A stretch of 64,000 nucleotides of DNA, taken from contig CAZTJD010000009.1 in NCBI GenBank assembly GCA_964613985.1, positions 859 to 64,858 on the forward strand. The letters run 5' to 3'. The DNA is from an uncultured Anaerolineales bacterium. GTDB lineage: Bacteria > Chloroflexota > Anaerolineae > Anaerolineales > UBA11858. Shown here piece by piece: positions 4,656-42,330 of this stretch. The notes beneath the pieces are model-generated. The model made no database searches, was not told the DNA's origin, and worked only from the letters and a program-made list of their open reading frames with translations. Both the position numbers and the translations under genes were made by a program. Each line of letters opens with the position of its first letter. Position 1 is the first letter of the stretch.

Positions 4656-5576
4656 ATGAAACCAATTAAGAGATTTCGACCAGTGGATGAAGCATCCATT
4701 ATTATTCCACCAGCTGATGTTTCACAGATTCAAAGAAAGTGGTTGGATCTATCATATGCTACCCTCTCTGCTTCCCAAAAACTAGACATTTTTATACCGG
4801 ATATCGGGGAAGGACCTTTCCCAATTATTTTATATATCCATGGTGGTGGATTTGCCATAGGAGATAAACGGGATATTCATGTATTAACCTGGTTAAAAGG
4901 GTTGAAACGTGGTTATGCAATTGTTAGTACAAATTACCGCTTGAGCGGTGAGGCTGTGTTCCCGGCGAGTTTACAAGATATCAAAGCGGCTATCCGTTGG
5001 TTAAGGGCGACCAGTGACCAGTATCATCTAGATGGTGACCACATTGCAGCTTGTGGTGGCTCATCGGGTGGAAATTTAGCTGCAATGGTCAACTTAACTG
5101 CCCATGTAGCCGAATTTGATGATCCAAGACTAGGAAACCTTGATTTCCCCAGTAATGTACAAGCGGCTGTGGATTGGTTTGGACCGACAGACTTTCTTCA
5201 GATGGATGATCAGTTGGAAGAAAGTAGCTACGGACCCGCGGATCATGGTGAAGCGAATTCTCCTGAATCAAGATATTTAGGAGCTAAACTGTCTGAAGTG
5301 CCACTGAAGGTTGAGCTTGCGAATCCAATGACATATATCAATGAAAAAATGCCTCCAATTTTGATCCAACATGGACGTTTAGATACCTTAGTGCCTGTGC
5401 AACAATCCATCATGTTTGTAGATAAATTAAGAAATTATGTTCGTGGTGACCGTTATGAGTTTGATATTATCGAAGGAGCCGGTCATGGCGATTCATTGTT
5501 TGAAACAGACGAAAATATGAATCGTGTGTTTTCATTCCTGGATAAACATTTAAGCAATGAAGTTGTTATTTTATGA
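4656..5576 (+). CDS. Alpha/beta-hydrolase, probable carbohydrate/acetyl esterase
   Basis: HGGGF oxyanion-hole motif, GGSSGGN nucleophile elbow (G-x-S-x-G), C-terminal EGAGHGD. The ORF opens at 4611; ATG 4656 (MKPIKRF) is the more likely start. Confidence 0.75.
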   Translation: MKPIKRFRPVDEASIIIPPADVSQIQRKWLDLSYATLSASQKLDIFIPDIGEGPFPIILYIHGGGFAIGDKRDIHVLTWLKGLKRGYAIVSTNYRLSGEAVFPASLQDIKAAIRWLRATSDQYHLDGDHIAACGGSSGGNLAAMVNLTAHVAEFDDPRLGNLDFPSNVQAAVDWFGPTDFLQMDDQLEESSYGPADHGEANSPESRYLGAKLSEVPLKVELANPMTYINEKMPPILIQHGRLDTLVPVQQSIMFVDKLRNYVRGDRYEFDIIEGAGHGDSLFETDENMNRVFSFLDKHLSNEVVIL

Positions 5577-5683
5577 TATCTACCTATAGAGCAGAGTCAC
5601 CTCATTAGATTATTTTGCTTAGTGCAATTTAGTTCTGAATGGGTACTACAAAATATTAATTATAGACTCAATGGGCGCAGGAA

Positions 5684-5800
5684 CCCCCAAATATTGGACA
5701 TAATATACTCATTACTACTGTATGTGCACCTGTGGACACACGACAATCTGTATCTTAATCGTTAGGTTGAAGGTTCGGCGGCATACATGCCGAGTCACCT
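5684..5800 (+). repeat. Dispersed repeat, copy 1 (candidate attL; identity core 5753-5792)
   Basis: Core tcttaatcgttaggttgaaggttcggcggcatacatgccg is 39/40 identical to 23370-23409. The 70 nt to its left plus the first ~26 nt of the core are homologous to 56899-56990. Confidence 0.8.
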
Positions 5801-5831
5801 GCAGGGGTAATGCCGCAAGACTGTCATCTTG

Positions 5832-6064
5832 CTAACGGTAGAATGGGAAAATTATCCATTCTGCTGCTTTGTCTTGGTTATAGGTATCGACGTGGCTGAA
5901 AATATCCAAGTTGATAGAAAGCCTGTTGTGCCCCAATCGCTTGGAGACCACATTGAGACTGACACCATGGTTGAGCGTCAGTGATGCCATGGTATTCATC
6001 AGCTCGTAAAAGCGATTTCTTACTACCTTAGCATTCTCCCAATCCTGAAAAAATCCCTGTGAAG
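5832..6064 (-). pseudogene. Tyrosine recombinase (phage-type integrase) C-terminal relic
   Basis: Minus-strand translation: ...NRFYELMNTMASLTLNHGVSLNVVSKRLGHNRLSINLDIFSHVDTYNQDKAAEW...*. It matches the integrase C-terminal block (HDLRHT-x-AS...GV.L..VS.RLGHSSI.ITLD.YSHV). The H/R positions are replaced (YELMNT) and the catalytic Tyr is Phe (DIFSH). A TAA closes the frame upstream at about 6065. Confidence 0.65.
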
Positions 6065-6137
6065 GTTACTAGGATACACTGATGTTCAGAGAACAGAATA
6101 TTCTCGTGCAGTCTGCAAACGAGGGGTAAAAATCCTC

Positions 6138-6198
6138 TTGACTTCGATGTAGATATTTGCTACAATCCGGGAAACCGGTTGCGCAACCGGTTTCCCGG
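6138..6198 (+). promoter_or_regulatory. Promoter plus 32-bp perfect palindromic operator, copy A (duplicate of the lacI promoter)
   Basis: TTGACT (6138-6143), 17 nt, TACAAT (6161-6166), immediately followed by CCGGGAAACCGGTTGC|GCAACCGGTTTCCCGG (6167-6198). All 16 pairs verified. Confidence 0.7.
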
Positions 6199-6253
6199 TA
6201 CCTGTTTTTCTCATTATTTATCTGATAATCACTTTATCTTGGAAGGAGACGCT

Positions 6254-6435
6254 GTGCCCCGAGCGACGATCAGAGATGTAGCTGCCCTGGCCGGAGTTTC
6301 AAAGACGACGGTTTCTCATGTTATTAAAGAAACTCGCTTTGTCGAGGAAGATACGCGTCAAAAAAGTATTGCATGATATGGATAAATTTCAATACCGGCC
6401 GAATCCCGCCGCGCGGAGCTTAACGACCAAGCGAA
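6254..6435 (+). pseudogene. LacI-family regulator N-terminal (HTH) relic, decayed duplicate of 10914-11095
   Basis: [39 protein letters not shown], then a 1-nt insertion in an A-run shifts the frame (stop at 6374-6376). Nucleotide homology to the intact lacI continues to about 6435. Confidence 0.85.
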
Positions 6436-6460
6436 GAAGAAACTCTTCATTCTGGAACGA

Positions 6461-6775
6461 ATGAACCCCGGCATGTGGGAGCACGCCATGTGGATGACGG
6501 GTTACGAGAAATTCTTTTCAGTGATGATCAATAACAAGAAGCTGTGCCATGCCATCATGAGCAAGATCCTAGAGATCAAACGGGAGTACGGCAAGGATCT
6601 GACGATATGGGGTGGTAGTTGTGATTCACAAAGAGTAATACCTTATTGTACTCCGCAAGAAGTTAGAGACGAAACCAGGCGCCGAATTGAAAACCTTGCT
6701 CCAGGAGGAGGATTTGTTTTTGCTCCAATCCATGTGATTCAGGGTCATGTACCACCCGAGAACATCGTAACCTAG
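6461..6775 (+). pseudogene. URO-D-like protein relic (N-terminus missing, internal deletion)
   Basis: The 104-aa ORF aligns to two separated parts of the intact paralog at 20785-21786. PGMWEHAMWMTGYEKFF... resembles ...RPFERLQFLRGTENLF..., and GKDLTIWGG...APGGGFVFAPIHVIQGHVPPENI resembles KGKVTFWGE...SSGGVIAHCEWGKDNSKENI. About 120 residues between them are missing. Confidence 0.7.
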
Positions 6776-6983
6776 TGGGATGCGCTTCAAGATTACGGCA
6801 ATAACTAAGGTAAGGAGGCACTGATGAATCAAGGGTTTTACATAGAGAACAGGTGTAGAATTGCTTCGGGATTAACAGATGGGCACATCATGCTGGCTGG
6901 ACTCAAGGGCAGTTGGAGCGTCTGAGGTTTTGAACTGCACCGTCAGATAGGGAGCACCTGCCCGGAAAGGATCTTTTTGCCTA

Positions 6984-8159
6984 ATGAAGATTTCTAATGT
7001 GTCTACAATAGCCGTCAGTCTTCCCTGGAAGTCTCCACCGTATTCCACGGAAATGGCCGGTACCAAGCGAGAGTGGGGCCGTAATATTCGCGGGTTCTCA
7101 TACATTCCCGATCTCACTCTCAGTTATGTAATCGTGACCGTTGAGACAGACGAAGGAATCATCGGAGTCGGTGAGGCCGCCACAGACATTGGTTTTTTCG
7201 GAGAGCCTCTCGAGGAGGTCAAGTACGCCATTGAGCGGTATTTTGGTCCAAAGCTCATAGGGAAAGATCCTTTCGACCGGGAGGAGATCCTGCACTTACT
7301 CGACTATCGCGGAAACACATGCGCCAGATCGGGTATTGATCTGGCTTTGCACGACCTTCTCGGCAAGGCTCTTGAAATACCGATTTACGACCTTATTGGG
7401 GGTTGCTGCCGGGACCGGGTGCTTGTCGCCATCGAAATAGCAGGCGGAACGCCGGATGGGATGGCCAAACTCTGTGCGGAATATGTTGAACAAGGGGTGA
7501 GGGCTTTCAAACCCAAGATAGGAGGTTATCCTGATGAAGATGCCATCAGGCTGAAGGCAATCCGGGAAGCCGTTGGTGAGGGGATCTCTATCAGGGCCGA
7601 TGCCAACCAGGGATATACTCCAAAAGAAGCCATCAGACTGTGCCGGCTGGCAGAAAAATACGATGTCGGACTAGAATTGCTTGAACAGCCGGTGCCTGCC
7701 TGGGACCTGGATGGAATGGCTCTGGTTAGAAAATCCGTCGACACTTTGATCGAGGCAGACGAGAGCGCCTACAGCACTCATGATGTTATGAATATCATCC
7801 GGCAGGGCGCGGCTGATGTGATTAATATCAAGGTAGCCAAGGCTGGGGGACTTTACAACGCCAAGAAAATCGCCGCTCTGGCAGAGGCGGCGGGTCTTGG
7901 CTGCGTTTTGGGGACGGCCTTTGGTTTGGGGCTCAAAGTTGCGGCAAAACTGCACCTGGCAGCGTCGACCCGAAACATCATAGATGCGGTCGAGTTCACC
8001 GAGATCATTCTTCATGACAACCTGGCTGAACCCCCGTTTGACCAGGTGTTTACGCTGCCCCTTGAGGACGGTTATTTGCATGTTCCGACAGGACCTGGTC
8101 TCGGGGTCCAACTCGATGAAACCAAAGTGGAACGATACATGATAGATGCTATAAGATAA
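6984..8159 (+). CDS. Enolase-superfamily enzyme, MLE subgroup (dipeptide/amino-acid-derivative epimerase or racemase-like)
   Basis: 391 aa. KxK motif (FKPKIGG), metal-ligand blocks IRADANQGY / LEQPV / EADES, and the second catalytic Lys in DVINIKVAKAGG. Confidence 0.75.
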   Translation: MKISNVSTIAVSLPWKSPPYSTEMAGTKREWGRNIRGFSYIPDLTLSYVIVTVETDEGIIGVGEAATDIGFFGEPLEEVKYAIERYFGPKLIGKDPFDREEILHLLDYRGNTCARSGIDLALHDLLGKALEIPIYDLIGGCCRDRVLVAIEIAGGTPDGMAKLCAEYVEQGVRAFKPKIGGYPDEDAIRLKAIREAVGEGISIRADANQGYTPKEAIRLCRLAEKYDVGLELLEQPVPAWDLDGMALVRKSVDTLIEADESAYSTHDVMNIIRQGAADVINIKVAKAGGLYNAKKIAALAEAAGLGCVLGTAFGLGLKVAAKLHLAASTRNIIDAVEFTEIILHDNLAEPPFDQVFTLPLEDGYLHVPTGPGLGVQLDETKVERYMIDAIR

Positions 8160-8171
8160 GGAAAAAATGAA

Positions 8172-9212
8172 ATGGAACTACTGAGGGTTTTAAGCAATAC
8201 ACCAGGCGTGTCTGGATTTGAGGATCCGGTTCAACTGGTCATTAAGGCTGAACTTGAGCCGGTCTGCGACAGCGTGCACGTTGACAAGATCGGTAATGTC
8301 ATCGGGTTTAAAAGAGGTGTCCACACTGAGCAGAGCTCGATACCGCTAAAAGTGATGCTAGCCGCACACATGGACGAGATCGGCTTTATGGTCAAGCATA
8401 TCGATTGCGACGGCTTTGTGCGCTTTATGCCTATCGGTGGCTTCGACCCCCGGACGCTGGTTGCGCAGCGTGTAATCATTCATGGTCGACAGGATGTCAA
8501 AGGGGTGATTGCACCACAGCCAAATTGGATCATGAGTGACAAAGACCGGCAAAAAGTACTGGATATCAAGGAGCTTATTATTGATACCGGGATGGACAGG
8601 GAAACGATCTCGAACCTGGTCTCCATTGGTGATGTCATCAGTCTGTCACAATCTTTTGACGAGATGAATGACAATGTGGTTATTGGCAGGAACTTTGACG
8701 ACCGCGTTGGCGTGTACGCGATGCTCGAAGCGATGAAACGTATCAACGAGTGCCAGGTAGATGTCTATGCGGTTGCTACGGTGCAGGAGGAAGTTGGTCT
8801 GCGCGGTGTGCCCACTGCAGCCTATGCGATTGAGCCTGATGTGGGTATCGCGCTTGATGGCAGCCTGGCGTCTGACGTCCCCTATGCCAAAGAGGAGGAA
8901 AAACACTGCATCATGGGGGCCGGTACAGGGATCTATGCTATGGATAATCTTACAATCAGCGACCGCAAGTTGTTTCAATTTTTGCTGCAGCTCGCCCAGA
9001 AGGAGGGGATTAAGACCCAGATCAATCTGGGCGGTGGTACGGATGCCTCGATCATTCAGCGGCACAGAACAGGAGCGAGGGTGTGCACGATTGGTCCACC
9101 GACACGGTATATGCATTCGACGGTTCAAATGTGTAGCGTGGAGGACATCGAGAGCACAATTAAACTGTTGGTGGCTTTTTTACATAATGCCCACAAAGGA
9201 GAATTTAGATGA
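8172..9212 (+). CDS. M42-family aminopeptidase (FrvX/YpdE/PepA-like)
   Basis: 346 aa. N-terminal LLRVLSNTPGVSGFE, HMDEIGF, ATVQEEVGLRG and GGGTDA blocks typical of M42 metallopeptidases. Confidence 0.85.
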   Translation: MELLRVLSNTPGVSGFEDPVQLVIKAELEPVCDSVHVDKIGNVIGFKRGVHTEQSSIPLKVMLAAHMDEIGFMVKHIDCDGFVRFMPIGGFDPRTLVAQRVIIHGRQDVKGVIAPQPNWIMSDKDRQKVLDIKELIIDTGMDRETISNLVSIGDVISLSQSFDEMNDNVVIGRNFDDRVGVYAMLEAMKRINECQVDVYAVATVQEEVGLRGVPTAAYAIEPDVGIALDGSLASDVPYAKEEEKHCIMGAGTGIYAMDNLTISDRKLFQFLLQLAQKEGIKTQINLGGGTDASIIQRHRTGARVCTIGPPTRYMHSTVQMCSVEDIESTIKLLVAFLHNAHKGEFR

Positions 9213-10558
9213 ATGCAATGTACCAATCAGATTTTACAAAAGGGGAATTTCAAACTCGAAGGGAAAAAGTATACCAGGCAATTGGCTCCCAGGCCGTGGC
9301 TTTAATCCAAGGTTCTGCCAAAAATCCCGGTCATGCTGTTTTTCGGCAGAACAATGATTTTTATTATCTCTGTGGCGTAGAAACACCGCATGCCTATCTC
9401 TTCTTAGATGGCATAAACCAGACCAGCACGCTCTTTCTTGCCCATCAAAGCAAAGCACAGTTGGAGACTGAAGGCGAGATTCTTTCGGCAGAGAATGCCG
9501 GTCTTGTCCAGGAACTAACGGGTATCGATCAAGTATTGGGGATCGAATTCCTGGCCCAGTACCTGGAGAATGTACGTATTCTTTATACGCCAATGCGTCA
9601 GGGTGAAAGGGAAAAGATGAGTAGCGATACCTTACGACGGGCGCAGCAAGAGATTTTTTCAGATCCCTGGGACGGTCGCTTGGACCGGATGCGACACTTC
9701 GTCTCAAAGTTACATGAACGCTATCCTATGGCCGAAATCCGAGACCTGAGTCCGACGCTGGACGATCTGCGGCTGATCAAGAGTGAACAGGAATTGGCGT
9801 TGCTGCGTAAGGCCGGCAAATTGAGCGCACTTGGCACCATCGAGGCCATGCGTTCAACAAGGCCAGACGTCATCGAATATCAGCTTGATGCTGCGATGCG
9901 CTATCACTATTTGATCAATGGGGCGCGAGATGCTGGGTACAACGCCATCGTTGCTGGTGGTGACAATGCCTGGTATGGGCATTACAGCGCCAACAACTGC
10001 CCTTTGCTGGATGGCGATCTGGTGCTGGTCGATTGTGCACCCGATTACCATTATTACACTAGCGACATTGGTCGGATGTGGCCGGTAAACGGGCATTACT
10101 CGTCTTTGCAACGAGAGTTGTATGGCTTTATAGTCAAATATCACAAGGTCCTTTTGAATCTAATCCGCCCAGGATTCACAGATACGTGGATCCTACAAAG
10201 AGCTGCTGCTGAGATGCTTAATGTTATTGAAAACACCGAGTTTTCGAAGGAGGTCTATGAGGCAGCGGCGCGGCGGGCACTCGAGTTTCCTTATCACATG
10301 TCGCACTGTGTAGGAATGGCCGTGCATGATGTTGGACATTATCGAGGCAAAGAACTTAAACCTGGTATGGTCTTTGCGGTTGATCCAATGATGTGGATTC
10401 CCGAGGAACGACTCTACATCCGAGTAGAAGATACGGTGACGGTCACGGAGGAAGGGATAGAAAACTTTACTTCTGATGCCCCTCTAGAGCTGAGTGATGT
10501 TGAAGCGCTCATGAGAGAGTCTGGTATCCTTGATCGGTTTCCAGTTCTGTCCGACTGA
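9209..10558 (+). CDS. M24B-family Xaa-Pro aminopeptidase / prolidase-like
   Basis: 449 aa. Creatinase-type N-domain plus pita-bread motifs DCAPDYHYYTSDIGR, HCVGMAVHDVG and IRVEDTVTVTEEG. ATGA start/stop overlap with the M42 gene. Confidence 0.85.
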   Translation: MNAMYQSDFTKGEFQTRREKVYQAIGSQAVALIQGSAKNPGHAVFRQNNDFYYLCGVETPHAYLFLDGINQTSTLFLAHQSKAQLETEGEILSAENAGLVQELTGIDQVLGIEFLAQYLENVRILYTPMRQGEREKMSSDTLRRAQQEIFSDPWDGRLDRMRHFVSKLHERYPMAEIRDLSPTLDDLRLIKSEQELALLRKAGKLSALGTIEAMRSTRPDVIEYQLDAAMRYHYLINGARDAGYNAIVAGGDNAWYGHYSANNCPLLDGDLVLVDCAPDYHYYTSDIGRMWPVNGHYSSLQRELYGFIVKYHKVLLNLIRPGFTDTWILQRAAAEMLNVIENTEFSKEVYEAAARRALEFPYHMSHCVGMAVHDVGHYRGKELKPGMVFAVDPMMWIPEERLYIRVEDTVTVTEEGIENFTSDAPLELSDVEALMRESGILDRFPVLSD

Positions 10559-10797
10559 TGGAAAGGCGGTTCATTCACCGCTCACACGAATTCCATGGCC
10601 CAGGCCCGGGCAAATAACATTATAAAATCTATTTTGGATTCGAGGCTTATTGGTCACCCAATTAAAAATCTCTTTACAACCTAATAATTCCCCGGTGGAC
10701 AGAATCGAATGCAAGGATTGGCTGGTCTATATTGATTTATCGGTATTCGGCAAACAGAGAATACTCGAGCAGTCTGCATACGTAGGTATAAATCATC

Positions 10798-10858
10798 TTG
10801 ACTATGATGTGGATATTTGCTACAATTTAGGAAACCGGTTGCGCAACCGGTTTCCTAA
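10798..10858 (+). promoter_or_regulatory. lacI promoter plus 32-bp perfect palindromic operator, copy B
   Basis: TTGACT (10798-10803), 17 nt, TACAAT (10821-10826), immediately followed by TTAGGAAACCGGTTGC|GCAACCGGTTTCCTAA (10827-10858). All 16 pairs verified. Confidence 0.75.
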
Positions 10859-10913
10859 GGCAAATTTATCTGATTATTTAGCATTCACACAATTCATCTT
10901 ATAAGGAGGCGCT

Positions 10914-11924
10914 GTGCCCCGAGCGACGATCAAAGATGTAGCTGCCCTGGCCGGAGTTTCAAAGACGACAGTTTCTCATGTTATTAACGAAACTCGCTTT
11001 GTCGAGGGAGATACGCGCCAAAAAGTATTGCAGGCTATTGATGAACTTCAATACCGGCCGAATGCCGCCGCTCGCAGCTTAACAACCAAGCGAACCGGGA
11101 CAATCGGGATGCTTATCTCTGACGCGTCTAACCCATTTTTTGGAGAAATTCTGCTTAGCGTTGAAGAGATCCTTCGTCCTAAAGATTATGCATTAATTAT
11201 CTGTAATACAACCGAAACTCTGGAGTATGAGGCTCATTATCTCGACCTGCTCTTAGGTCAACGAGTCGATGGAATAATTGCAGCAGCTACCAGCCAACCT
11301 TGGATCGAGCTATCCAAAGCGGAAATACAGCATACCCCTGTTGTTTTTGTAGATCGCGCTTTTGATAATTTTGATGGTTTTTATGTTGGTGTGGATAACC
11401 AAGCCGGTGCTTATATGGGTACTCAGCACCTGATCCAATGTGGCTATCATAAAATAGGCGTTTTGGCTGGTTTAGAGCGCCTATCCACTATGCGAAAACG
11501 CCTGGATGGATATTGTCGAGCTCTGAAAGATGCCAATATTCCACTCAACCGTCAATGGATTATTCCATCTCAACTAAGTATTGATGGAGGCCGGCAAGCG
11601 TTTAGGACGCTCTTTAGCCTGGGGGATAAACCTGATGCAGTCTTTATAAACAACAATCTATTGGCGTTGGGTGCTTTGTTGGAAATGGCAGAGCTCAATA
11701 TAGATTGTATAATAGATCTGGGAATTGTCGTTTTTGATGATCATCCATGGGCGGCAGTTACAAATCCTCCACTCACGGTCGTAAGGCAGCCGACTCATAA
11801 AATTGGTCAAACTGCTGCCGAGATGATCCTGGCACTTATCAATAATCAACCAGTGGCAGAAAAGCGTGTAATTCTTGAGTGTGAATTGATCGTGCGCCAA
11901 TCTTGTTTATCCTTGCAAAGCTAA
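10914..11924 (+). CDS. LacI-family transcriptional regulator
   Basis: 336 aa, GTG start after [42 protein letters not shown] hinge, and a type-1 PBP effector domain. Confidence 0.9.
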   Translation: MPRATIKDVAALAGVSKTTVSHVINETRFVEGDTRQKVLQAIDELQYRPNAAARSLTTKRTGTIGMLISDASNPFFGEILLSVEEILRPKDYALIICNTTETLEYEAHYLDLLLGQRVDGIIAAATSQPWIELSKAEIQHTPVVFVDRAFDNFDGFYVGVDNQAGAYMGTQHLIQCGYHKIGVLAGLERLSTMRKRLDGYCRALKDANIPLNRQWIIPSQLSIDGGRQAFRTLFSLGDKPDAVFINNNLLALGALLEMAELNIDCIIDLGIVVFDDHPWAAVTNPPLTVVRQPTHKIGQTAAEMILALINNQPVAEKRVILECELIVRQSCLSLQS

Positions 11925-11948
11925 TTCATAAATCAAAACGAAGAAATC

Positions 11949-12050
11949 ATGGATTATACAAGCAACGAACGTGTTTTAGCCGCCCTGCAGCACAAAGAAT
12001 CCAACCGAGTACACATAATCGAGCGGAAAGAGCAGGAAAAAGAATGCTGA
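11949..12050 (+). pseudogene. 33-codon remnant resembling the N-terminus of a URO-D-like protein
   Basis: MDYTSNERVLAALQHKESNRVH... resembles the N-terminus of the intact paralogs (MTGRERVKAALTFTAPDRTP...). It ends at TGA 12048-12050, overlapping the permease ATG at 12044. Confidence 0.4.
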
Positions 12051-12967
12051 ATTATATTCTCAAGCGCTTCGCAATGATGCTGATCACCCTATTCATCATT
12101 ATCACGGCTACTTTCTTCCTCATGCGAGCAATACCGGGAGGCCCGTTCTCCTTTGACCGGGTGCTTCCACCCAGCGTAGAAGAAGCCCTTGAAGCAAAAT
12201 ATAACCTCGATAAACCCGTCATTGAGCAGTATTTTGATTATCTTCTCGGAATAATCCGATTCGATTTCGGCCCATCGTATGTCTACTTCGGTCAGACGGT
12301 GAACGAAATGATGGCGGATGGCTGGCCTGCTTCTGCCACATTGGGCGCCGCCGCTACTATCCTCATTATTCTGCTGGGACTGCCAATGGGCATTGTGGCG
12401 GCGCTCAACCGCAATAAACCTGCGGATCGCATTGCCATGGTCATATCGACCGTTGGGGTGGTTGTGCCCTCCTTTGTGATGGCAACGTTTCTACTCTACT
12501 TCTTTTCGATAAAAGTGGAGTTATTTCCCACATTCGGTGTGGAAAGCTACCGGGGTTATATACTGCCGGCGATCTGTCTTGCGATCGGGCCGGTGTGTGG
12601 CATTGCCAGACTGGCACGTTCCAGCATGCTGGATACACTCAGCCAGGATTATATGCGCACAGCCGAATCAAAAGGACTGTCCCGCTCCAGGATTATCATC
12701 GTACACGGGCTGCGCAATTCGCTCATTCCGGTTACGACATCTCTGGGCATGATATTTGCCGCCATGCTTTCCGGTACTTTTGTAATTGAGAAAATATTTG
12801 CCGTGCCCGGATTGGGTAGATATTTCGTCTTCTCGATCACAAACCGCGATTATACTGCCGTGATGGGTCTGACAATCCTTTCTTCCGTCATTATGGTCGT
12901 TGCAGTTTTTCTCATTGACATCATTTATTTGCTCATCGACCCGCGCATCAAGCTCTATGAAAAGTAG
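12044..12967 (+). CDS. Opp/Dpp-type ABC permease (DppB-like)
   Basis: MLNYILKRFAMMLITLF start typical of the family. 6-TM BPD_transp_1 pattern (YMRTAESKGLS motif). The ORF opens at 11903, but ATG 12044 follows a purine-rich RBS. Confidence 0.85.
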   Translation: MLNYILKRFAMMLITLFIIITATFFLMRAIPGGPFSFDRVLPPSVEEALEAKYNLDKPVIEQYFDYLLGIIRFDFGPSYVYFGQTVNEMMADGWPASATLGAAATILIILLGLPMGIVAALNRNKPADRIAMVISTVGVVVPSFVMATFLLYFFSIKVELFPTFGVESYRGYILPAICLAIGPVCGIARLARSSMLDTLSQDYMRTAESKGLSRSRIIIVHGLRNSLIPVTTSLGMIFAAMLSGTFVIEKIFAVPGLGRYFVFSITNRDYTAVMGLTILSSVIMVVAVFLIDIIYLLIDPRIKLYEK

Positions 12968-12983
12968 GAGAAAAGCAACCGTT

Positions 12984-14156
12984 ATGATCGATACTCAGCA
13001 AGAACAGCTTGTCAAGGACTGGACACCGTTGCCACAGGAAGATAAACACGCGGAAACCATCACGGGAATAACGCTAAGTTATTGGCAGGATGTTCGACGC
13101 AGGCTTTTTAAAAACAAAGTGGCCATCGCCTCGATTTTTGTCATTATCATGATTATGCTTGCATCCATATTCGGCCCCCTCCTTACCGGTAAAACCTATG
13201 AAGCACAGCAACTCTCCCTCCGCAACATGCCGCCGCGCATAGAAATTCATACGTCGAGTGATGGCACAATTTTTTTTGTGCACCCAGATTTGAAAGTTTT
13301 CCTGGCGCAGGAGAACGGTTATGTTAGCGAGGAATTGGCGCCGGTATCGGCAAATTTGAGTGACAAGATGTTCATCTTTGAACATAACGGAAACCCATAT
13401 TATCTCAACTTTTCGGGGGGCAGCATCAAGTTTTTGAATGAAAACCAAGAACCATTGCCGCAGCGCAAGACAACCTGGAATAAGAACTATCTCCTAGGTA
13501 CGGATTCTCTTGGCCGAGATATGCTCACCAGACTGCTTTATGGTGGTCGTATCTCCTTATTGGTGGCGTTTACCGTGACGATTAGCACCATGTTGATTGG
13601 CGTGATTTACGGTGGAATCTCGGGGTACTATGGCGGCAACACAGACATCCTGATGATGCGTGTGGTGGAGATCCTGATGGCGATCCCGAGCATAATCTAT
13701 ATCATCCTGTTAATGGTCTATCTTGGACAAGGGGTTTACAACATCCTGATTGCCATGGCGCTGACTTCCTGGCTTGGGATGGCGCAGCTGGTTAGGGGCC
13801 AGGTCCTGGGGTTGAAAGAGCAGGAATTTGTTCTTGCGGCAAGAAGTGTCGGCATATCGCCTTTTAAAATCATTCTCAATCATTTGCTCCCTAACAGCAT
13901 TGGCCCGATAATCGTTTCTGCGACTTTAAGTATTCCCGGAGCGATTGCGGGAGAAGCATTTATGAGTTTTATAGGTCTCGGTGTGAGGCCTCCAATGCCC
14001 TCCTTGGGTATTTTGAGCAACGAAGGTCTTAGCGCGATTCGTTCATCTCCCTATCAGATCTTGTTACCCAGTATTGCCATCAGTCTGACAATGTTTGCGT
14101 TCAATTTCTTGGGTGATGGCTTGCGTGATGCGCTGGATCCGAAACTACGTGTTTAA
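12984..14156 (+). CDS. Opp/Dpp-type ABC permease (DppC/OppC-like, long N-terminal extracytoplasmic segment)
   Basis: ATG 12984 is preceded by AGGAG. One N-terminal TM, about 100 aa of loop, then the conserved permease core (LLGTDSLGRDMLTRLLYGGRISL). Confidence 0.85.
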   Translation: MIDTQQEQLVKDWTPLPQEDKHAETITGITLSYWQDVRRRLFKNKVAIASIFVIIMIMLASIFGPLLTGKTYEAQQLSLRNMPPRIEIHTSSDGTIFFVHPDLKVFLAQENGYVSEELAPVSANLSDKMFIFEHNGNPYYLNFSGGSIKFLNENQEPLPQRKTTWNKNYLLGTDSLGRDMLTRLLYGGRISLLVAFTVTISTMLIGVIYGGISGYYGGNTDILMMRVVEILMAIPSIIYIILLMVYLGQGVYNILIAMALTSWLGMAQLVRGQVLGLKEQEFVLAARSVGISPFKIILNHLLPNSIGPIIVSATLSIPGAIAGEAFMSFIGLGVRPPMPSLGILSNEGLSAIRSSPYQILLPSIAISLTMFAFNFLGDGLRDALDPKLRV

Positions 14157-14167
14157 GGACGCTTTGA

Positions 14168-15178
14168 ATGAGTGTTCAACCGTTATTGGAAGTGAATAAT
14201 CTGCGTACCTCCTTTTTTACATTTTCAGGTGAGGTGCAGGCGGTTCGGAATGTCAGTTTTGATCTGGTAGATGGGGAGATTGTCGGTATTGTGGGAGAGA
14301 GCGGCTCAGGTAAATCTGTTCTGTGTCTATCAGTCATACGCCTGCTCCACGAATCTGGTCAGATCGTTGATGGTCAGATCCTTTATGATGGCAAGAATGT
14401 CCTTGGGATGTCCAAAGAAAATCTGCGCAGGCTGCGTAACACTCAAATCGGCATGGTATTTCAAGAACCGATGACCAGTTTGAACCCGACCATCCGGGTT
14501 GGAACGCAGATCGTGGAACGCATCCGGGCATTTAATAAGAAAATCAGCAAAGAGCAAGCCCGTAAGAAGGCCGAGCAGTTACTGGAGATGGTCAAGATCC
14601 CTGAGGCGGAGAGGCATCTGGATTCATACCCGTTTGAATTATCCGGCGGTATGCGCCAGCGGGTGATGTTTTCCATTGCCATCGCCTGCAACCCCAAACT
14701 ACTCATCCTGGATGAACCGACGACTGCGCTGGATGTCACCATTCAGAGCCAGATTCTGAAATTAATCCGCAACATTCAGAAGGAAACAGGTGCTTCCATC
14801 ATCCTGATTACACATGATTTAGGAGTTGTGGCGGAAACCTGTAAGCGTGTCATCGTCATGTATGGCGGCATGATCATGGAGGAAGGGCTGGTTGAAGAAA
14901 TATTCTACGAGACCGCACACCAATACACGATTGGATTAAAGAAATCTATCCCTGATGTCAATAAGGTCGGTGGGGACCGTCTGTTTTCAATCGCCGGGAC
15001 GCCACCCAGTCTGCTCGAGCCGCCCAAGGGATGTCCGTTCTATGCACGTTGCGATAAGGCCATGAAAGTGTGCATTGAGCACCGCCCGCCTTATTTCCAA
15101 CTCAGTCCGACGCACCACAGCATGTGCTGGCTACTGGACCCTGAAATGCCGGGGCAATCCGACCAAGGAGGCCAGTAA
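14168..15178 (+). CDS. Opp/Dpp-type ABC ATPase (OppD-like)
   Basis: Walker A GESGSGKS, LSGGMRQR, LLILDEPTTALD, and a C-terminal oligopeptide-ATPase extension with Cys residues (KGCPFYARC). Confidence 0.9.
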   Translation: MSVQPLLEVNNLRTSFFTFSGEVQAVRNVSFDLVDGEIVGIVGESGSGKSVLCLSVIRLLHESGQIVDGQILYDGKNVLGMSKENLRRLRNTQIGMVFQEPMTSLNPTIRVGTQIVERIRAFNKKISKEQARKKAEQLLEMVKIPEAERHLDSYPFELSGGMRQRVMFSIAIACNPKLLILDEPTTALDVTIQSQILKLIRNIQKETGASIILITHDLGVVAETCKRVIVMYGGMIMEEGLVEEIFYETAHQYTIGLKKSIPDVNKVGGDRLFSIAGTPPSLLEPPKGCPFYARCDKAMKVCIEHRPPYFQLSPTHHSMCWLLDPEMPGQSDQGGQ

Positions 15179-16147
15179 ATGGGTGAACAGCACTTGATCG
15201 AGGTAAAAAACCTGAAAAAGTATTTTGGCGGCGGCGGTTTTTTGAGCAAGAAACCAGCCATCAAGGCCGTGGATGACATCTCTTTTTCGATTACCAAGGG
15301 AGAAACATTTGGCCTGATCGGCGAATCGGGCTGTGGTAAATCAACGGTCGCCCGCACGATGATTCGTTTGTATAATCCGACATCTGGTTCGGTGATCTTT
15401 GATGGAACAGATATCGCCAGGCTTGGCGAAAAAGAACTCATGCCATACCGTCGTCGCATCCAGATGATTTTTCAGGATCCTTATGCATCGCTCGACCCGC
15501 GCATGACGGTCAAACGAATCGTAACAGAGCCGCTGACCGCCCATGATTTCTGCCCCAAGTCGGAGTATGAGGAGCGTGTTGCTGAATCTTTGCGCAAGGT
15601 CGGCTTAGAACCGGCTCACATGGGGAAGTATCCACATGAATTCTCGGGCGGTCAGCGCCAGCGTATCGGTATTGCACGAGCAATTATTACCCAACCGGAT
15701 TTTATAATCTGCGATGAACCGATTTCCGCCTTGGATGTATCCATTCAGGCGCAGGTGGTGAACATGCTGCAATCGCTTCAAGAACAGTTGGGATTGACTT
15801 ATTGTTTCATCGCCCACGATCTTGCCATGGTAAAGTACATCTCAAAGCGCATGGCAGTAATGTATGTGGGACAGCTCGTGGAAGTTTCAATCAGTGAGGA
15901 GCTGTACCGCGCCCCACTGCATCCATATACGATCGGCCTTATGCGCGCAGTTCCAATTGCCGATCCCAGGATCGCCCAAATGAAGGATGAGGTTTCAATT
16001 GAAGGTGAGATCCCCAGCCCTTCCAATCCTCCTTCCGGATGTCGCTTCAGGACACGATGCCCGGAATGTATGGATATCTGCAAAGAGGTCAGCCCGATGC
16101 TCAAAGAGATCACCCCAAACCACTTTGTAGCCTGCCACTTGTTTTGA
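15179..16147 (+). CDS. Opp/Dpp-type ABC ATPase (OppF-like)
   Basis: Walker [30 protein letters not shown], and the C-terminal PSGCRFRTRCP motif. The ATG abuts the previous TAA. Confidence 0.9.
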   Translation: MGEQHLIEVKNLKKYFGGGGFLSKKPAIKAVDDISFSITKGETFGLIGESGCGKSTVARTMIRLYNPTSGSVIFDGTDIARLGEKELMPYRRRIQMIFQDPYASLDPRMTVKRIVTEPLTAHDFCPKSEYEERVAESLRKVGLEPAHMGKYPHEFSGGQRQRIGIARAIITQPDFIICDEPISALDVSIQAQVVNMLQSLQEQLGLTYCFIAHDLAMVKYISKRMAVMYVGQLVEVSISEELYRAPLHPYTIGLMRAVPIADPRIAQMKDEVSIEGEIPSPSNPPSGCRFRTRCPECMDICKEVSPMLKEITPNHFVACHLF

Positions 16148-16295
16148 CAACTACAAGGATATGCATCAGCGATAAAATTTAGGACGATTGGAAAGGAGGT
16201 AGGTATATGGATTGAAAAACAAAGATAAGTAGAAGATCAGCAACTGATTGGAAATTCGTGTTTTCGAACTATATTCAAATAATGGAGATAACAAG

Positions 16296-18041
16296 ATGAA
16301 AAAGCTCATTACATTTCTAGTAACATCGCTCGTTTTATTGTTACTGCTGATAGGTTGTGCACCGCAGCCGACGCAGTCTATTCAGGAAGATTTACCGCCG
16401 ACCGAGGCGCCCGCCGAACCCACCGAGGCACAGGCTGAACCCACCGAGGCGCCGGTTGAACCCACCGAAGCACCCATCGAACCCACAGAAGAACCCGCAG
16501 AACCAGAAGCCGTTCCTGCAGAGCCGGTAACTTTCCATTATGCTTTTCTGATCGAACCCCCGGGTATCGACCCCGGCGTTTCTCAGGGCAGCGTCCAGTC
16601 CACCCTTTATGCTGCACTCTATGAGGGGCTTGTGACGGTTGATGATAAAGGCAATATTGTTCCTGGGGCAGCGGAAAGCTGGGATGTTAGCGAGGATGGA
16701 ACTGAGTATACATTCCATCTAAGAGAAGGACTTAAGTGGTCTGATGGCGAACCGCTGACTGCTAAAGATTTCGAGTATTCCTGGCTACGCGCGCTGATGC
16801 CGGAAACTGCTTCAACCTATAGCTGGTTTGTCGAGATGTTTATATATAACAGTTCGGCGTTTGCGCAGGGTGAAGTTGGCGCTGAGGAAGTTGGCATCAA
16901 AGCCACGGATGATCTCACTTTGGAAGTCAAGCTCAATATGCCGGCGGCCTATTTCCCGCAAGCACTACTGGCTGGCGTCTGGAATCCCGTCCGCCAGGAT
17001 ATGGTCGAAGCTGATCCCGAAAAGTGGCCTTTTAATGCCGAAACTGCGATTTCGAACGGCCCCTTCAAGTTCACAGAGTACAAAATCGGATCCTACATCA
17101 CGGCTGTGAAAAATGAGAACTATTGGGATGCCGATTCCATCACGATCGATAATCTACGTTTCTCTTTCATCGCTGATGAAAATACGGCCTACAACGCCTT
17201 TATTGCAGGCGATGTCGATGGCATCGCAGGCGTTCCCAACACTGAACTGATTAATCTCCTGACCACTGATGACAGGCTGACCGCGTATGATCAACTCAGG
17301 ATCAACTTCCTGCGCCTAAACAACGAAACTCCCGGCCTGGACAACCAACAAGTCAGAAGGGCAATCAACCTGGCAATCGACCGGAAAAGCTATCTGGACG
17401 GTCTTGGCAACATCACCTCCAAGCCGATCTTGGGAGTAGTTCCCGGCGGACTTATCCTTGACGGTAAAGACTTCCGGGAAGTGTCCGGTGATAATGGGCT
17501 CACTGTAACTGCACAGGTTGAAGAAGCTCAGGCCTTGCTGGCCGATGCCGGTTATCCCAACGGTGAGGGTCTACCAGTCTACCGACTGCACACTTTTGAA
17601 AATTGGGCCAAAGATGCTGAGATTATTCAACAGATGCTGCTGGTCAACCTGGGTATCCAGACCGAAATCCAGTCAGTTGACTCCAAGCTCTTCTTCCCCA
17701 TGATTATTGATGGCGAGTACGATATCGCCTTCGGCGGCTGGGGCGGCGACTATGTTCACCCCATGACATTCTTCGATCTCTTCACCTCGACGGCTTACGA
17801 TAATGCCACCCGTTGGGCGAACCCCGAATACGACGATCTCATCAACCGGGCGCGTGTCGCCACCGATGAAGCGGTAGCGCTCGATTTGATGGTACAAGCC
17901 GAGAAAATCTTGATGGAAGAAAGCCCGATTGTGCCGTTGATTGTTCCTGCCAGTGCGATTATGATCCAGGATTATGTAACGAACTGGTTCATATCCCCGC
18001 TTGACACACTCTATATTTCCAGAGCAGTCGTCACCAAGTAA
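16296..18041 (+). CDS. Family-5 (Opp/Dpp-type) ABC substrate-binding lipoprotein
   Basis: MKKLITFLVTSLVLLLLLIGC lipobox, an EPTEAP-repeat linker, then an SBP_bac_5-like body. The ORF opens at 16248; ATG 16296 follows GGAGA. Confidence 0.85.
   Translation: MKKLITFLVTSLVLLLLLIGCAPQPTQSIQEDLPPTEAPAEPTEAQAEPTEAPVEPTEAPIEPTEEPAEPEAVPAEPVTFHYAFLIEPPGIDPGVSQGSVQSTLYAALYEGLVTVDDKGNIVPGAAESWDVSEDGTEYTFHLREGLKWSDGEPLTAKDFEYSWLRALMPETASTYSWFVEMFIYNSSAFAQGEVGAEEVGIKATDDLTLEVKLNMPAAYFPQALLAGVWNPVRQDMVEADPEKWPFNAETAISNGPFKFTEYKIGSYITAVKNENYWDADSITIDNLRFSFIADENTAYNAFIAGDVDGIAGVPNTELINLLTTDDRLTAYDQLRINFLRLNNETPGLDNQQVRRAINLAIDRKSYLDGLGNITSKPILGVVPGGLILDGKDFREVSGDNGLTVTAQVEEAQALLADAGYPNGEGLPVYRLHTFENWAKDAEIIQQMLLVNLGIQTEIQSVDSKLFFPMIIDGEYDIAFGGWGGDYVHPMTFFDLFTSTAYDNATRWANPEYDDLINRARVATDEAVALDLMVQAEKILMEESPIVPLIVPASAIMIQDYVTNWFISPLDTLYISRAVVTK
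16395..16527 (+). repeat. In-frame 21-nt tandem repeat (about 6 units) encoding the (E-P-T-E-A-P-x)n linker
   Basis: gaacccaccgaggc... units read directly. They translate to PTEAPAEPTEAQAEPTEAPVEPTEAPIEPTEEPAEPEAVPAEP. Confidence 0.85.
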
Positions 18042-18058
18042 CAATAATTGCATAGTTT

Positions 18059-18103
18059 GCGGTCGTCCCTGGTTACATAGGGGACGACCGCTATCATATT
18101 TTT
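18059..18103 (+). terminator. Rho-independent terminator after the Opp-type operon
   Basis: An 11-bp GC-rich stem gcggtcgtccc / gggacgaccgc with a 10-11 nt loop, followed by tatcatattttt. Confidence 0.8.
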
Positions 18104-18123
18104 AAAAGGAAAAAGGATATGCT

Positions 18124-19143
18124 ATGCAGCAAGCAATAATGACCAACCCGGGGAACATTGAATTTCGTGAGATTCCGCGTCCAATACCCCAACCCGATGA
18201 AGTATTGATCCAGGTAAAACGTATCGGCGTGTGTGGTTCAGATATCCATGTCTACCACGGGCTGCACCCTTATACCAGTTATCCGGTTGTGCAAGGGCAT
18301 GAAGTTTCGGGGCTGGTCGCTGAGTTAGGTAAAGAAGTTAAAGGCTTTTCGCTGGGTGATAAAGTGGTCTTTATGCCCCAGGTGACCTGTGGCGAGTGTT
18401 ACCCTTGCCGGCATGGTTTATACCATATCTGCGATCACCTCAAGGTAATGGGCTTTCAAACCAACGGCGCGGCACAAGAATATTTTCCGGTCCCGGCCGA
18501 ATTGGTGTTGAAGCTGCCCGAGTCAATCTCAATCGATCAGGCCGCAATGATTGAGCCGATTTCAGTCGCAGTTCATGCCCTTGCACGGTATGGGAGCGTG
18601 GATGGCTTGAATGTCCTGGTGTTGGGAGCCGGAACGATCGGCAACCTAGAAGCTCAGGTTGCTATCGCAATGGGCGCCAAGGAAGTAATGATTACAGATA
18701 TCAGTGAATATAAGTTACAGAAAGCCCGTGAATGTGGCATTGAGCACGGGATCAACCCGCAGCAAGAGGATCTCAGCCATGCACTCTTGAATACCTTTGG
18801 GCCAGATAAGGCTGACTTGATTTTGGAATGCGTGGGGGTTCAGGATACTATCACTCAGGCAGTGGCGAATGCGCGTAAGGGCAGTACGATCATCGTTGTG
18901 GGTGTCTTTGGGAAGAAGCCAGTTGTCGATCTGGGTCTGGTGCAAGATCGTGAGTTAAATCTGATTGGAACATTGATGTATCAAAAGGCAGATTACGAGC
19001 ACGCGATCGAACTTGTCTCGCTTGGTAAGCTACGCCTGGATCCGATGATCACACACCGTTTCGTATTTGCAAATTATGTGCAAGCCTATGAAACGATCGA
19101 AACTTCTGACGGCAGGTATATCAAGGTCATGATTGACCTCTAG
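18124..19143 (+). CDS. Zn-dependent medium-chain dehydrogenase (sorbitol/threonine dehydrogenase-like)
   Basis: 339 aa. CGSDIH, GHEVSG, the structural-Zn cluster CGECYPCRHGLYHIC, and a GAGTIG Rossmann motif. Confidence 0.85.
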   Translation: MQQAIMTNPGNIEFREIPRPIPQPDEVLIQVKRIGVCGSDIHVYHGLHPYTSYPVVQGHEVSGLVAELGKEVKGFSLGDKVVFMPQVTCGECYPCRHGLYHICDHLKVMGFQTNGAAQEYFPVPAELVLKLPESISIDQAAMIEPISVAVHALARYGSVDGLNVLVLGAGTIGNLEAQVAIAMGAKEVMITDISEYKLQKARECGIEHGINPQQEDLSHALLNTFGPDKADLILECVGVQDTITQAVANARKGSTIIVVGVFGKKPVVDLGLVQDRELNLIGTLMYQKADYEHAIELVSLGKLRLDPMITHRFVFANYVQAYETIETSDGRYIKVMIDL

Positions 19144-19156
19144 GGAGAACCAAATT

Positions 19157-20323
19157 ATGAAATCCTTCACGTATTTCCAACCCACCGAACTTCGTTTTGG
19201 GAGCGGCCGGCTGGAAGAAACCGGTGAGGCCACTGCCAGGTTCGGCAAGCGCTGTTTGATCGTTTCAAGACCTGTCAATGCTGTATTCGAGCCAAGGATC
19301 GACCGGGTAAAGCGCAGCCTTATTAAGGCTGGCGTTGAATGTACCCATTTTGACGGCGTGGTACCCAACCCGACTACCGATTGCGTTACTGCCGGTGCAC
19401 AGCTGGCTAAGTTGCATAAAGCGGATGTTGTCTTGGGCGTTGGCGGAGGTTCCAGCATGGATACTGCCAAAGCAATTGCAGTCGAGGCGACTCATCCTGG
19501 CACTGCCTGGGATTACCTTTACTTCAAAACACCTCTGACCGGAAAAACCCTGCCCGTTATTGCTGTTCCGACCACTTCGGGTACTGGCTCACATGTTACT
19601 CAGGTCGCGGTGATGACCGAGACCAAGACCAAGACCAAATCAGCCATCTATAATGCCAGTATCTATCCGAAAATTGCCATCGTTGACCCAGATTTGATGG
19701 AGACGCTGCCGCCCCATATCACCGCTTCTACTGGATTCGATGTATTTTGCCATGCCTTTGAAAGTTATATACATATCAACGGCACACCCTACACCGATTA
19801 TCTGGCACTTGAGGCGATCCGGCTGGTAGCCGAAAACCTTACTGTTGTAGTTAAGGACGGTGCCAATCAAGCAGCTCGCACGAAAATGGCCTGGGCGGAT
19901 ACGCTTGCAGGATTGTGCATTGCCAATGCAGGTGTGACCCTACCACACGGCATCGGTATGACCATTGGCGGGCAATGTCCGCAGATCATGCATGGTGAAG
20001 CACTCGGGGTAGTTTACCCCCAATTCACACGCTTTACATACCCAACAGCAGTGGAAAAGTTCGCTGCTATGGGGCGCATTTTCGATCCGGCACTCATTAA
20101 CCAGCCGGATGATGTAGCCGCCGAACAATCATGTGAATTGCTGGATGATCTGCTCAAGAAGATCGGCATGTGGCTGGGGTTGAAGGCTCTGGGCGCTTCG
20201 GAAACAGATGTGGTCGCGATTGCCGATCACAGCCATGTGCTGCCGGATTACAAAAACAATCCGCGTATCGCCAGCCGGGACGAAATCTACGAGATGTTGA
20301 TGGCGAGTTACGAACGCGTCTGA
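19157..20323 (+). CDS. Iron-containing (group III) alcohol dehydrogenase
   Basis: GVGGGSSMDTAKA, PTTSGTGS, and His-rich metal blocks (FCHAFESY, LPHGIGM). ATG 19157 follows GGGAGA; the ORF opens at 19133. Confidence 0.85.
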   Translation: MKSFTYFQPTELRFGSGRLEETGEATARFGKRCLIVSRPVNAVFEPRIDRVKRSLIKAGVECTHFDGVVPNPTTDCVTAGAQLAKLHKADVVLGVGGGSSMDTAKAIAVEATHPGTAWDYLYFKTPLTGKTLPVIAVPTTSGTGSHVTQVAVMTETKTKTKSAIYNASIYPKIAIVDPDLMETLPPHITASTGFDVFCHAFESYIHINGTPYTDYLALEAIRLVAENLTVVVKDGANQAARTKMAWADTLAGLCIANAGVTLPHGIGMTIGGQCPQIMHGEALGVVYPQFTRFTYPTAVEKFAAMGRIFDPALINQPDDVAAEQSCELLDDLLKKIGMWLGLKALGASETDVVAIADHSHVLPDYKNNPRIASRDEIYEMLMASYERV

Positions 20324-20764: not shown

Positions 20765-20784
20765 ACGAAAGGGTACCTCTATTG

Positions 20785-21786: not shown

Positions 21787-21873
21787 TTAGTCAATTATAA
21801 ATTGCATCAGATATTTGGTAAAACCTTGTGAGCATGCTGTTGTTATCAAGATTACAAGAGGAGACGTTTTTTA

Positions 21874-42035: not shown

Positions 42036-42330
42036 TAGATGCACCTCCTTCTTACTGGGATAAGAATATTATACATGTTTTAAACCATCATGTGGGTGGG
42101 TTGCGGAGTAATAAATAGAGGGGGAAACGGCAGGTATCACTCAGAGGTTTCCTGAACAGAGTGTGGGATTGACGACAATATCACAGGATGAATTCGACCT
42201 TTTAAACAGGATCTAAGGACAGCCCAACTCGTATTAAAAAAAGGGGGGGCTTAACTTACCAGCTTTGGTCCTTCCAAATGTTCAATGGACAACTCTAAAA
42301 CAATCTAACTCGAGGGAGACGCAAATTAGA

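Follow-up and report, generated by a model that had tools for sequence, protein, structure and literature searches.

The 64-kb window, by which is meant the whole stretch of DNA that was analysed, contains two palindromes of 32 bp, A and B, each located behind a promoter and ahead of a complete or truncated gene for a LacI-family regulator. The features of this region, with the methods by which they were identified, are the following.

6092-6435, plus strand: duplicated block, copy A, comprising upstream DNA, promoter, palindrome, 5'UTR and the first 182 nt of lacI (blastn)
6138-6166, plus strand: promoter A, TTGACT, 17 nt with TG before the -10, TACAAT (promoter scan; layout conserved in orthologs)
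6167-6198: palindrome A, with its 20-bp conserved core at 6173-6192 and 12-bp units GnAACCGGTTnC at 6171-6182 and 6183-6194
6254-6435, plus strand: 5' pseudogene fragment of lacI (alignment; blastn)
6432-6941, plus strand: debris of a URO-D-family gene and the first ~40 codons of an M24 peptidase gene (tblastx, Pfam)
6984-8159, plus strand: MR/MLE enzyme of the enolase superfamily, intact (Pfam)
8172-9212, plus strand: M42 peptidase, intact (Pfam)
9209-10558, plus strand: M24 Xaa-Pro peptidase, intact (Pfam)
10753-11094, plus strand: duplicated block, copy B, with the same segments (blastn, alignment)
10798-10826, plus strand: promoter B, TTGACT, 17 nt with TG before the -10, TACAAT (promoter scan)
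10827-10858: palindrome B, with its core at 10833-10852 and 12-bp units at 10831-10842 and 10843-10854
10914-11924, plus strand: LacI/PurR-type repressor gene, intact, GTG start, 336 aa (Pfam)
11903-20323, plus strand: operon downstream of lacI, with OppB/C-type permeases, two ATPases, a family-5 solute-binding protein, a Zn-ADH and an Fe-ADH (Pfam)

The initial annotation had described a pair of perfect 32-bp palindromes with mirrored outer substitutions, each directly preceded by TTGACT-17-TACAAT, and a re-check of the sequence bore out both points. All 16 pairs are perfect in palindrome A (left arm CCGGGAAACCGGTTGC, right arm GCAACCGGTTTCCCGG) and in palindrome B (left arm TTAGGAAACCGGTTGC, right arm GCAACCGGTTTCCTAA). 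The inner 26 bp are identical, and the sole differences are the mirrored outer triplets, CCG/CGG in A and TTA/TAA in B. Judged by the distance to the -10, transcription is predicted to start at about 6171-6174 behind promoter A and at about 10831-10834 behind promoter B. No third copy of the 26-mer or of the 18-mer core was found in the window with up to 3 mismatches allowed, and shuffled sequence gives a chance expectation of 0.00 to 0.04 core copies. Elsewhere in the window, a single PurR-like box (GCTCAACCGGTTGCTG, 3 mismatches) at 59391-59406 lies within an 890-aa open reading frame (57954-60626) and is probably a chance match.

Palindromes A and B are not independent, because both lie inside one 345-bp segmental duplication (6092-6435 and 10753-11094, 84.6% identity by blastn and alignment). 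The two copies differ at 3/29 positions in the promoter, 3/3 in the left flank, 3/3 in the right flank, 19/55 in the 5'UTR and 5/105 in the coding sequence. In the 26-bp core there are 0/26 differences, and when set against the other segments of the duplication this marks the core as conserved. The three left-flank changes form a cluster within a promoter that is otherwise ~10% diverged. Since blocks A and B have four derived characters of the coding sequence in common that are absent from the related loci L016, L018, L045, L139 and L140, the copies are sisters and the duplication took place within this lineage.

The copies have met different fates. In copy A, one extra A in a run at ~6360-6365 shifts the lacI reading frame and produces a stop at 6374-6376 (codon 41), and homology to lacI stops at 6435. 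The debris at 6432-6941 has tblastx matches to L016 8504-8668 and 8935-9319, with a Pfam URO-D match on 6461-6775, and the stretch from 6254 to 6941 (lacI stub, two URO-D pieces, M24 start) is colinear with L016 6962-9319. In copy B, lacI is joined straight to oppB (12013 corresponds to L016 12855) at the point where L016 has uroD-M24-GH95, and the operon at 11903-20323 is colinear with L016 12855-15980. The colinear debris of copy A and the lacI-oppB junction of copy B argue for duplication and decay of a larger operon. In the simplest history, an ancestral region of the form promoter/operator-lacI-uroD-M24-...-opp would have been duplicated, the 345-bp block probably being doubled as part of this event, and complementary decay would have followed. 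Copy B would now provide autoregulation of lacI along with control of the opp-type transporter and dehydrogenase genes. Copy A, which has kept promoter and operator and lost lacI, would head the genes for the MR/MLE enzyme and the two peptidases across ~0.8 kb of debris, and would bring them under the same repressor. The promoter scan found no other consensus-like promoter on the plus strand between 6166 and 10105, and the three enzyme genes may well be co-transcribed from promoter A.

Two further observations concern the surroundings of the duplicated blocks. On the minus strand just upstream of copy A, a 55-aa open reading frame (5832-5999, ending ...RLGHNRLSINLDIFSHV...) has no Pfam match and, judged by eye, looks like the C-terminus of a tyrosine recombinase. 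Two more URO-D-family genes are located at 20782-22857, at the far end of the copy B operon, and URO-D-like genes adjoin lacI in L016, L142, L143 and L145 too. As such genes are carried by the copy B operon and by four relatives, the URO-D family seems to be a regular member of the regulon.

The repressor encoded at 10914-11924 consists of a LacI-type HTH and a Peripla_BP core (PF00356, PF00532, PF13377). Its best solved relative is E. coli PurR, which matches over the full length (E=4e-57), and CcpA and RbsR are also among the top matches. The DNA-binding domain is nearly identical to that of PurR (VSTTTVSHVINKTRFV). A scan of the genome collection with the repressor protein yielded only 6 true orthologs, and close relatives are thinly represented in the comparisons below. 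A second LacI paralog could have explained the two types of flank; the candidate checked, a 336-aa open reading frame at 41034-42044, encodes an ABC permease.

We consider it likely that palindromes A and B are the operators of this PurR-like repressor, in a full explanation that includes the duplication described above and the template switch discussed below, and that the repressor binds to both. Operators of the LacI family form even palindromes of 16-22 nt around a central CG, and 72% of LacI-family regulators are autoregulatory (PMC4052901). The perfect 20-bp palindrome AACCGGTTGC/GCAACCGGTT with its central CG falls within this definition; alternatively, the site can be taken as a pair of boxes of 12-16 bp that both have CG in the middle. 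Further evidence comes from a metagenome scan that used the pattern AACCGGTTGCGNAACCGGTT only and returned at least 120 loci. Among the matches listed, 55/120 loci have a LacI-family gene that starts at most 450 bp from the site and reads away from it (median 79 bp), and the proteins at those 55 loci share 26-90% identity with the window repressor. In the window, the core begins 81 bp before the lacI GTG. Orthologs with 74-90% identity, from Anaerolineaceae and Caldilineaceae MAGs and from metagenomes, have the same -35, 17 nt, the same -10, 6 nt and then the array. At L003, L016, L018, L045 and L139-L145, the core lies 6 nt past the -10 in all except L003, where the distance is 16 nt.

This comparison of orthologous promoters, which the initial annotation had proposed, found that the core is kept and that mirrored flank variation recurs in the clade. 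It also sustains the proposal of a LacI-family operator on which the adjacent regulator acts, given the equal distance from the -10 in orthologs and the 55/120 listed loci that adjoin a LacI gene; the 26-bp form of that proposal, with its dyad at GCGC, is probably not the best reading. There is strong comparative evidence that the core would function as an autoregulatory LacI-family operator. For the window itself, autoregulation would apply to copy B with its intact lacI. Copy A is not an autoregulatory site, because its lacI is a dead stub, and other genes lie downstream of it. The operator would begin 1 nt past the -10 of a strong sigma-70-type promoter and span the predicted transcription start, and because it covers that start, bound repressor would block initiation. 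The Pseudomonas PtxS operator TGAAACCGGTTTCA similarly overlaps its own transcription start (PMC11678583). Nothing relevant to the motif was found in a literature search for the 12-mer GCAACCGGTTGC.

The scan also brought up sites of other kinds. At L042 (1362), L098 (3592)/L112 (12338), L048, L049 and L108, a LacI protein with a quite different HTH (ISKSTVSRALKNHPDIS) is encoded beside the same 20-bp core, which at these loci sits in palindromes of 34-40 bp (GTTATCAACnGC, core, GCnGTTGATAAC). At L047 (7577-7608), L087 (4940), L088 (1574) and L133 (6663), (GCGG AACCGGTT)n forms longer tandem arrays within GC-rich DNA, with neither a promoter-like context nor a nearby LacI gene; these repeats may be coding sequence and appear to be unrelated to the operators.

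The functional core of 20 bp (AACCGGTTGCGCAACCGGTT) is made of two head-to-tail 12-bp units, GnAACCGGTTnC. Each unit, with a CpG at its centre, can be read as a canonical LacI-type box that overlaps its neighbour. Three units stand behind the same promoter in the closest relatives, L016 and L018, whose LacI proteins are 89-90% identical to the window repressor, and also in L140, L142, L143, L004 and several metagenome loci (L016 5773-5808; L018 2213-2248; L140 920-951; L142 7903-7934; L143 7909-7940; L004 1671-1702). This variation in unit number among close relatives is as expected from tandem-repeat slippage. The box centres are 12 bp apart, and the number of units is 2 or 3 in every ortholog-derived array examined.

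Such an array can be read about two alternative dyads, and we lean modestly toward the one centred on the unit (AACC/GGTT) over the one centred on GCGC. The unit-centred box GCGCAACC/GGTTGCGC resembles the PurR operator, ACGCAAAC/GTTTGCGT. Compared with the PurR half-site pattern CGCAA-n-C around a central CpG, the inner half-sites fit (GCGCAACC), whereas GGGAAACC or AGGAAACC stands in the outer positions, and there are 2-3 mismatches per 16-mer. The middle unit of the relatives' 3-unit arrays is a perfect PurR-type box. An AACC/GGTT centre is also present in the experimentally defined PtxS operator TGAAACCGGTTTCA (PMC11678583), and the flank symmetry described below stops near ±14, which is the edge of a 16-bp box. 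For the GCGC dyad speak the spacer CpG, which is invariant, and the unit-centre CpG, which has been lost in L140, L143 and L005. The lack of any single-unit array among the ortholog-derived arrays examined favours the GCGC dyad as well. Mirrored changes within the core (L004 AACCGATT...AATCGGTT; L140 AACCAGTT...AACTGGTT) were considered as proof of the GCGC dyad and not taken as decisive: a mirrored pair has a chance of ~1 in 9 to 1 in 2 there, and some of the pattern follows from the duplication of units.

Symmetry outside the core was assessed at perfect-core sites in 56 de-replicated clusters from the matches listed, with a shuffled control. Pairing was in excess at position 11 (44/56 against a shuffled mean of 17.3, P<0.0005), position 12 (31/56 against 19.1, P<0.0005), position 13 (23/56 against 14.8, P 0.0135) and position 14 (34/56 against 20.1, P<0.0005). 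At positions 15 and 16 the counts were 19/56 and 21/56, against a shuffled mean of 14.3 for both (P 0.10 and P 0.03), and from position 17 on, pairing was at background in the 56 clusters. A control in which the partner arm was slid, applied to the 36 LacI-proximal clusters, gave a pairing excess at positions 11-15 and none at 16, with pairing at positions 14, 15 and 16 in 21/36, 16/36 and 16/36 of these clusters. The covariation score was 0.418, compared with 0.203 for shuffled flanks (0/500 shuffles reached the observed value) and 0.10-0.24 for slid ones. Mirrored covariation to about ±14-15 bp is a real tendency. The suggestion that symmetry at the DNA level extends beyond 26 bp is thus supported family-wide to about ±14-15 and fails at ±16.

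The flanks of the two window copies and of orthologs with an identical or near-identical HTH are listed below, left flank first.

Palindrome A (winA): CCGGGA, TCCCGG
Palindrome B (winB): TTAGGA, TCCTAA
L045: CCGGGA, TCCCAA
L139: ACAGAA, TTCTGA
L144: GTAGGC, GCCTGA
L016: CCAGGC, TCCCGT
L018: CCAGGC, TCCTGT
L145: CCTGTG, GCTTTA

Mirrored double changes are found somewhere in this close clade at pairs 11, 12, 14 and 15. Same-HTH orthologs vary between A·T and C·G at pair 11, between G·C and A·T at pair 12 and between A·T and G·C at pair 14. Pairs are also broken: L045 has C·A at 15 and 16 (CCG/CAA), L016 has A·C at 14, pair 16 is unpaired in L016 and L018 (C·T) and in L139 and L144, and flank symmetry is absent altogether from L145. 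The initial annotation had named non-mirrored outer substitutions in other copies as evidence against symmetry beyond 26 bp, and such substitutions do occur at the two outermost pairs, with CCG/CAA in L045 and C·T at 16 in L016 and L018; nor is there a family excess at 16. Because the nearest relatives break the outer pairs, the perfect 32 bp is specific to this genome, as is symmetry beyond ~28-30 bp. Parsimony points to a common ancestor of A and B in which positions 14 and 15 were probably paired and 16 was not. Pair 16 would then have been gained via the right arm in copy A and via the left arm in copy B, and pair 15 in copy B would have switched from C·G to T·A. A second within-genome comparison is offered by L061, where two sites 9.5 kb apart (803 and 10308) have the same left flank, TAGAC, and the mirrored right flank is present in one only; symmetry is not kept there.

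Among the explanations for the outer triplets we favour template switching between the arms, while giving it slightly less than an even chance of being correct. During replication of a long perfect palindrome, such a switch would copy the flank of one arm to the other, and the palindrome would grow. Template switching is known to turn imperfect inverted repeats into perfect ones by multi-base changes in one step (PMC8794818, PMC5941160). All three left-flank positions changed, compared with 3/29 in the promoter, and every change is complementary to the opposite arm; these three adjacent changes, together with the opposite-arm resolutions at position 16, fit template switching. As single strands, the 32-mers are predicted to fold at -17.1 and -14.2 kcal/mol as DNA, compared with -11.3 for the 26-mer. 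The outer triplets appear unnecessary for recognition, because the closest orthologs lack them, and mirrored alternatives are not predicted by additive selection on half-sites, because one repressor serves both copies and the HTH is essentially constant in the clade. On the other hand, parsimony places the pair-15 changes on both arms and leaves the polarity of pair 14 ambiguous. A single template switch is insufficient, because both arms of copy B were altered at pair 15. The more frequent pairing at position 14 than at 13 also counts against template switching, as it resembles a position-specific contact and not a simple zipper. From the family pairing rates, two perfect triplets have a chance of roughly 1%, which is not negligible for a post-hoc observation.

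An extended symmetric protein contact is possible and, in our view, has about one chance in four: bound to the overlapping boxes, possibly as a tetramer or a pair of dimers, the repressor would read or sense the DNA to ±14-16 bp, and selection would mirror the outer half-sites. It is consistent with the symmetry excess, which stops at ~±14-15, where a 16-bp PurR-type box placed over each AACCGGTT would end, and with the excess of pairing at 14 over 13. Many promoters have a left-flank base preference, TAGrA/C, which copy B (TTAGGA...TCCTAA) matches, and PtxS has a footprint of 26 bp on a palindrome of 14 bp (PMC11678583). A single repressor, however, faces CCG and TTA, which differ at 3/3 positions where additive selection predicts the same bases, and orthologs with an identical HTH have different flanks that are still mirrored. 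The outer pairs are moreover lacking in L045, L016, L018 and L145, and there is no excess of pairing at position 16.

It is rather unlikely that the mirrored triplets are a coincidence, in which the core was selected and the outer triplets became complementary by luck, in a fast-evolving UTR beside a discriminator under separate promoter selection. The right flank does lie within a stretch that is 35% diverged, the ancestor was probably paired already at 14 and 15, and from family-wide rates the figure for three pairs is about 0.1 per site; the sites of the closest relatives are imperfect, and the finding was picked post hoc. Yet all six positions differ with complementarity intact throughout, and three adjacent left-flank changes in a promoter that is 10% diverged have P about 0.001. 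Across the clade, pairs 11, 12, 14 and 15 repeatedly show double changes that mirror each other, and flank covariation exceeds both the shuffled and the slid controls.

We attach a similarly low likelihood to a broader proposal, in which the whole array of 28-32 bp would be read as one unit by a non-canonical complex on overlapping boxes spaced 12 bp apart, with the outer positions read by shape and not by the identity of their bases. Template switching would keep the arms alike, and the two paralogs would be opposite resolutions of one imperfect ancestor. If true, whole-array recognition would offer a tractable system for the puzzle of LacI sites ~13 bp apart, and it would mean that a mutational process shapes operator symmetry past the zone of protein contact.

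Selection on nucleic-acid structure, either for a hairpin at the 5' terminus of the mRNA (stability or translation) or for a cruciform extruded from supercoiled promoter DNA, appears improbable. The single strands fold strongly as DNA, as given above, the transcript from the predicted start would open with a 9-bp hairpin, and pairing looks contiguous, with position 13 paired in 20/30 if the inner pairs hold and in 3/26 otherwise. This contiguity signal is nevertheless confounded by the 3-unit arrays, and the transcript's own hairpin uses the core only. The initial annotation had judged an RNA hairpin a poor explanation, and promoter geometry agrees: the left outer triplet, situated downstream of the -10 and upstream of the predicted start, falls outside the RNA, and RNA pairing therefore could not select it. 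No Rfam match at E<=1 was found across 5500-11500, and whole-UTR folds are unexceptional (z -1.5 and -0.35). For a cruciform, a GC-rich centre such as GCGC should slow extrusion. Finally, 6167-6198 received a terminator-like call in a scan, with T-rich sequence following it. It is nevertheless extremely improbable that the palindrome is an intrinsic terminator or a mobile element of the REP/MITE type and not an operator, since the T-run of copy A starts 6 nt past the stem and copy B has none, both copies lie at a promoter and not at a gene end, only two copies exist in 64 kb, both inside one segmental duplication, and the element stands immediately after a conserved promoter and before a gene in dozens of lineages.

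Read as the operator of a PurR-like repressor, the site is, by its sequence, of a known LacI-family promoter-operator type: an even palindrome with a central CpG, positioned over the start, autoregulatory and composed of overlapping tandem boxes. It is an additional example of such an operator in an uncultured Chloroflexota-like lineage, and it annotates a regulon in a genome of the Chloroflexota type whose relatives are Anaerolineaceae and Caldilineaceae MAGs. LacI-type repression as it is understood is unchanged by these findings; what is mildly interesting is the rewiring, together with the mirrored covariation of the flanks. A duplicated promoter-operator cassette with a gene stub could wire an MR/MLE gene and two peptidase genes to an existing repressor. 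LacI-family regulators with no more than 26-90% identity are served by one perfect 20-bp core; it occurs in 2-3 overlapping units, and the mirrored covariation of its flanks, seen in many lineages, is not tied to any fixed sequence. These features bear on how LacI dimers use overlapping sites and on whether template switching during replication maintains operator palindromes. That the arms seem to evolve in step is a small curiosity of an ordinary switch.

Several known systems share parts of this arrangement. Compared with E. coli PurR (1PNR, 1QPZ), the window repressor conserves the recognition helix and the hinge Leu, while the hinge Lys55 of PurR is replaced by Thr, and the base beside the central CpG is C here and A in the PurR operator. 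The PurR operator is a single box and has outer half-sites of the form CGCAACC, whereas here there is a 2-unit overlapping array with GGAAACC. PurR regulates purine genes; the predicted targets of the window repressor are a peptide-type transporter, peptidases and dehydrogenases. Pseudomonas PtxS, with its 14-bp operator TGAAACCGGTTTCA, is also a LacI-family repressor with an AACC/GGTT centre and a transcription start inside the operator (PMC11678583). The outer half-sites here (GGAAACC/GGTTTCC) equal the PtxS half-site at 6/7 positions, although PtxS uses a single palindrome and the window array fuses two or three units by GCGC-type spacers, and the organism and regulon differ.

Overlapping LacI sites ~13 bp apart have been reported upstream of 110 operons, with a binding mode described as unresolved (Ravcheev et al., 2014, PMC4052901). 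Like the tandem overlapping boxes of E. coli GntR at gntKU, the arrays described here are conserved and preferred within an orthologous group, and the overlap falls within the zone of specific contact. Unlike the GntR-type sites, they have a spacing of exactly 12 bp, the whole array forms a perfect palindrome and close relatives have either 2 or 3 units. Binding of two dimers at once to boxes 12 bp apart is not possible in the canonical mode, which is the same puzzle as that of Ravcheev et al. (2014). For the outer triplets, the closest parallel is the correction of quasipalindromes (PMC8794818, PMC5941160), in which, as here, clustered multi-base changes beside a perfect palindrome make the arms complementary, and perfect inverted repeats are preserved over evolutionary time. 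Those systems are RNA stems and generic inverted repeats, whereas the present case concerns transcription-factor operators and draws on five to ten related sequences; and unlike them, it includes one pair that changed on both arms and would call for an extra point mutation.
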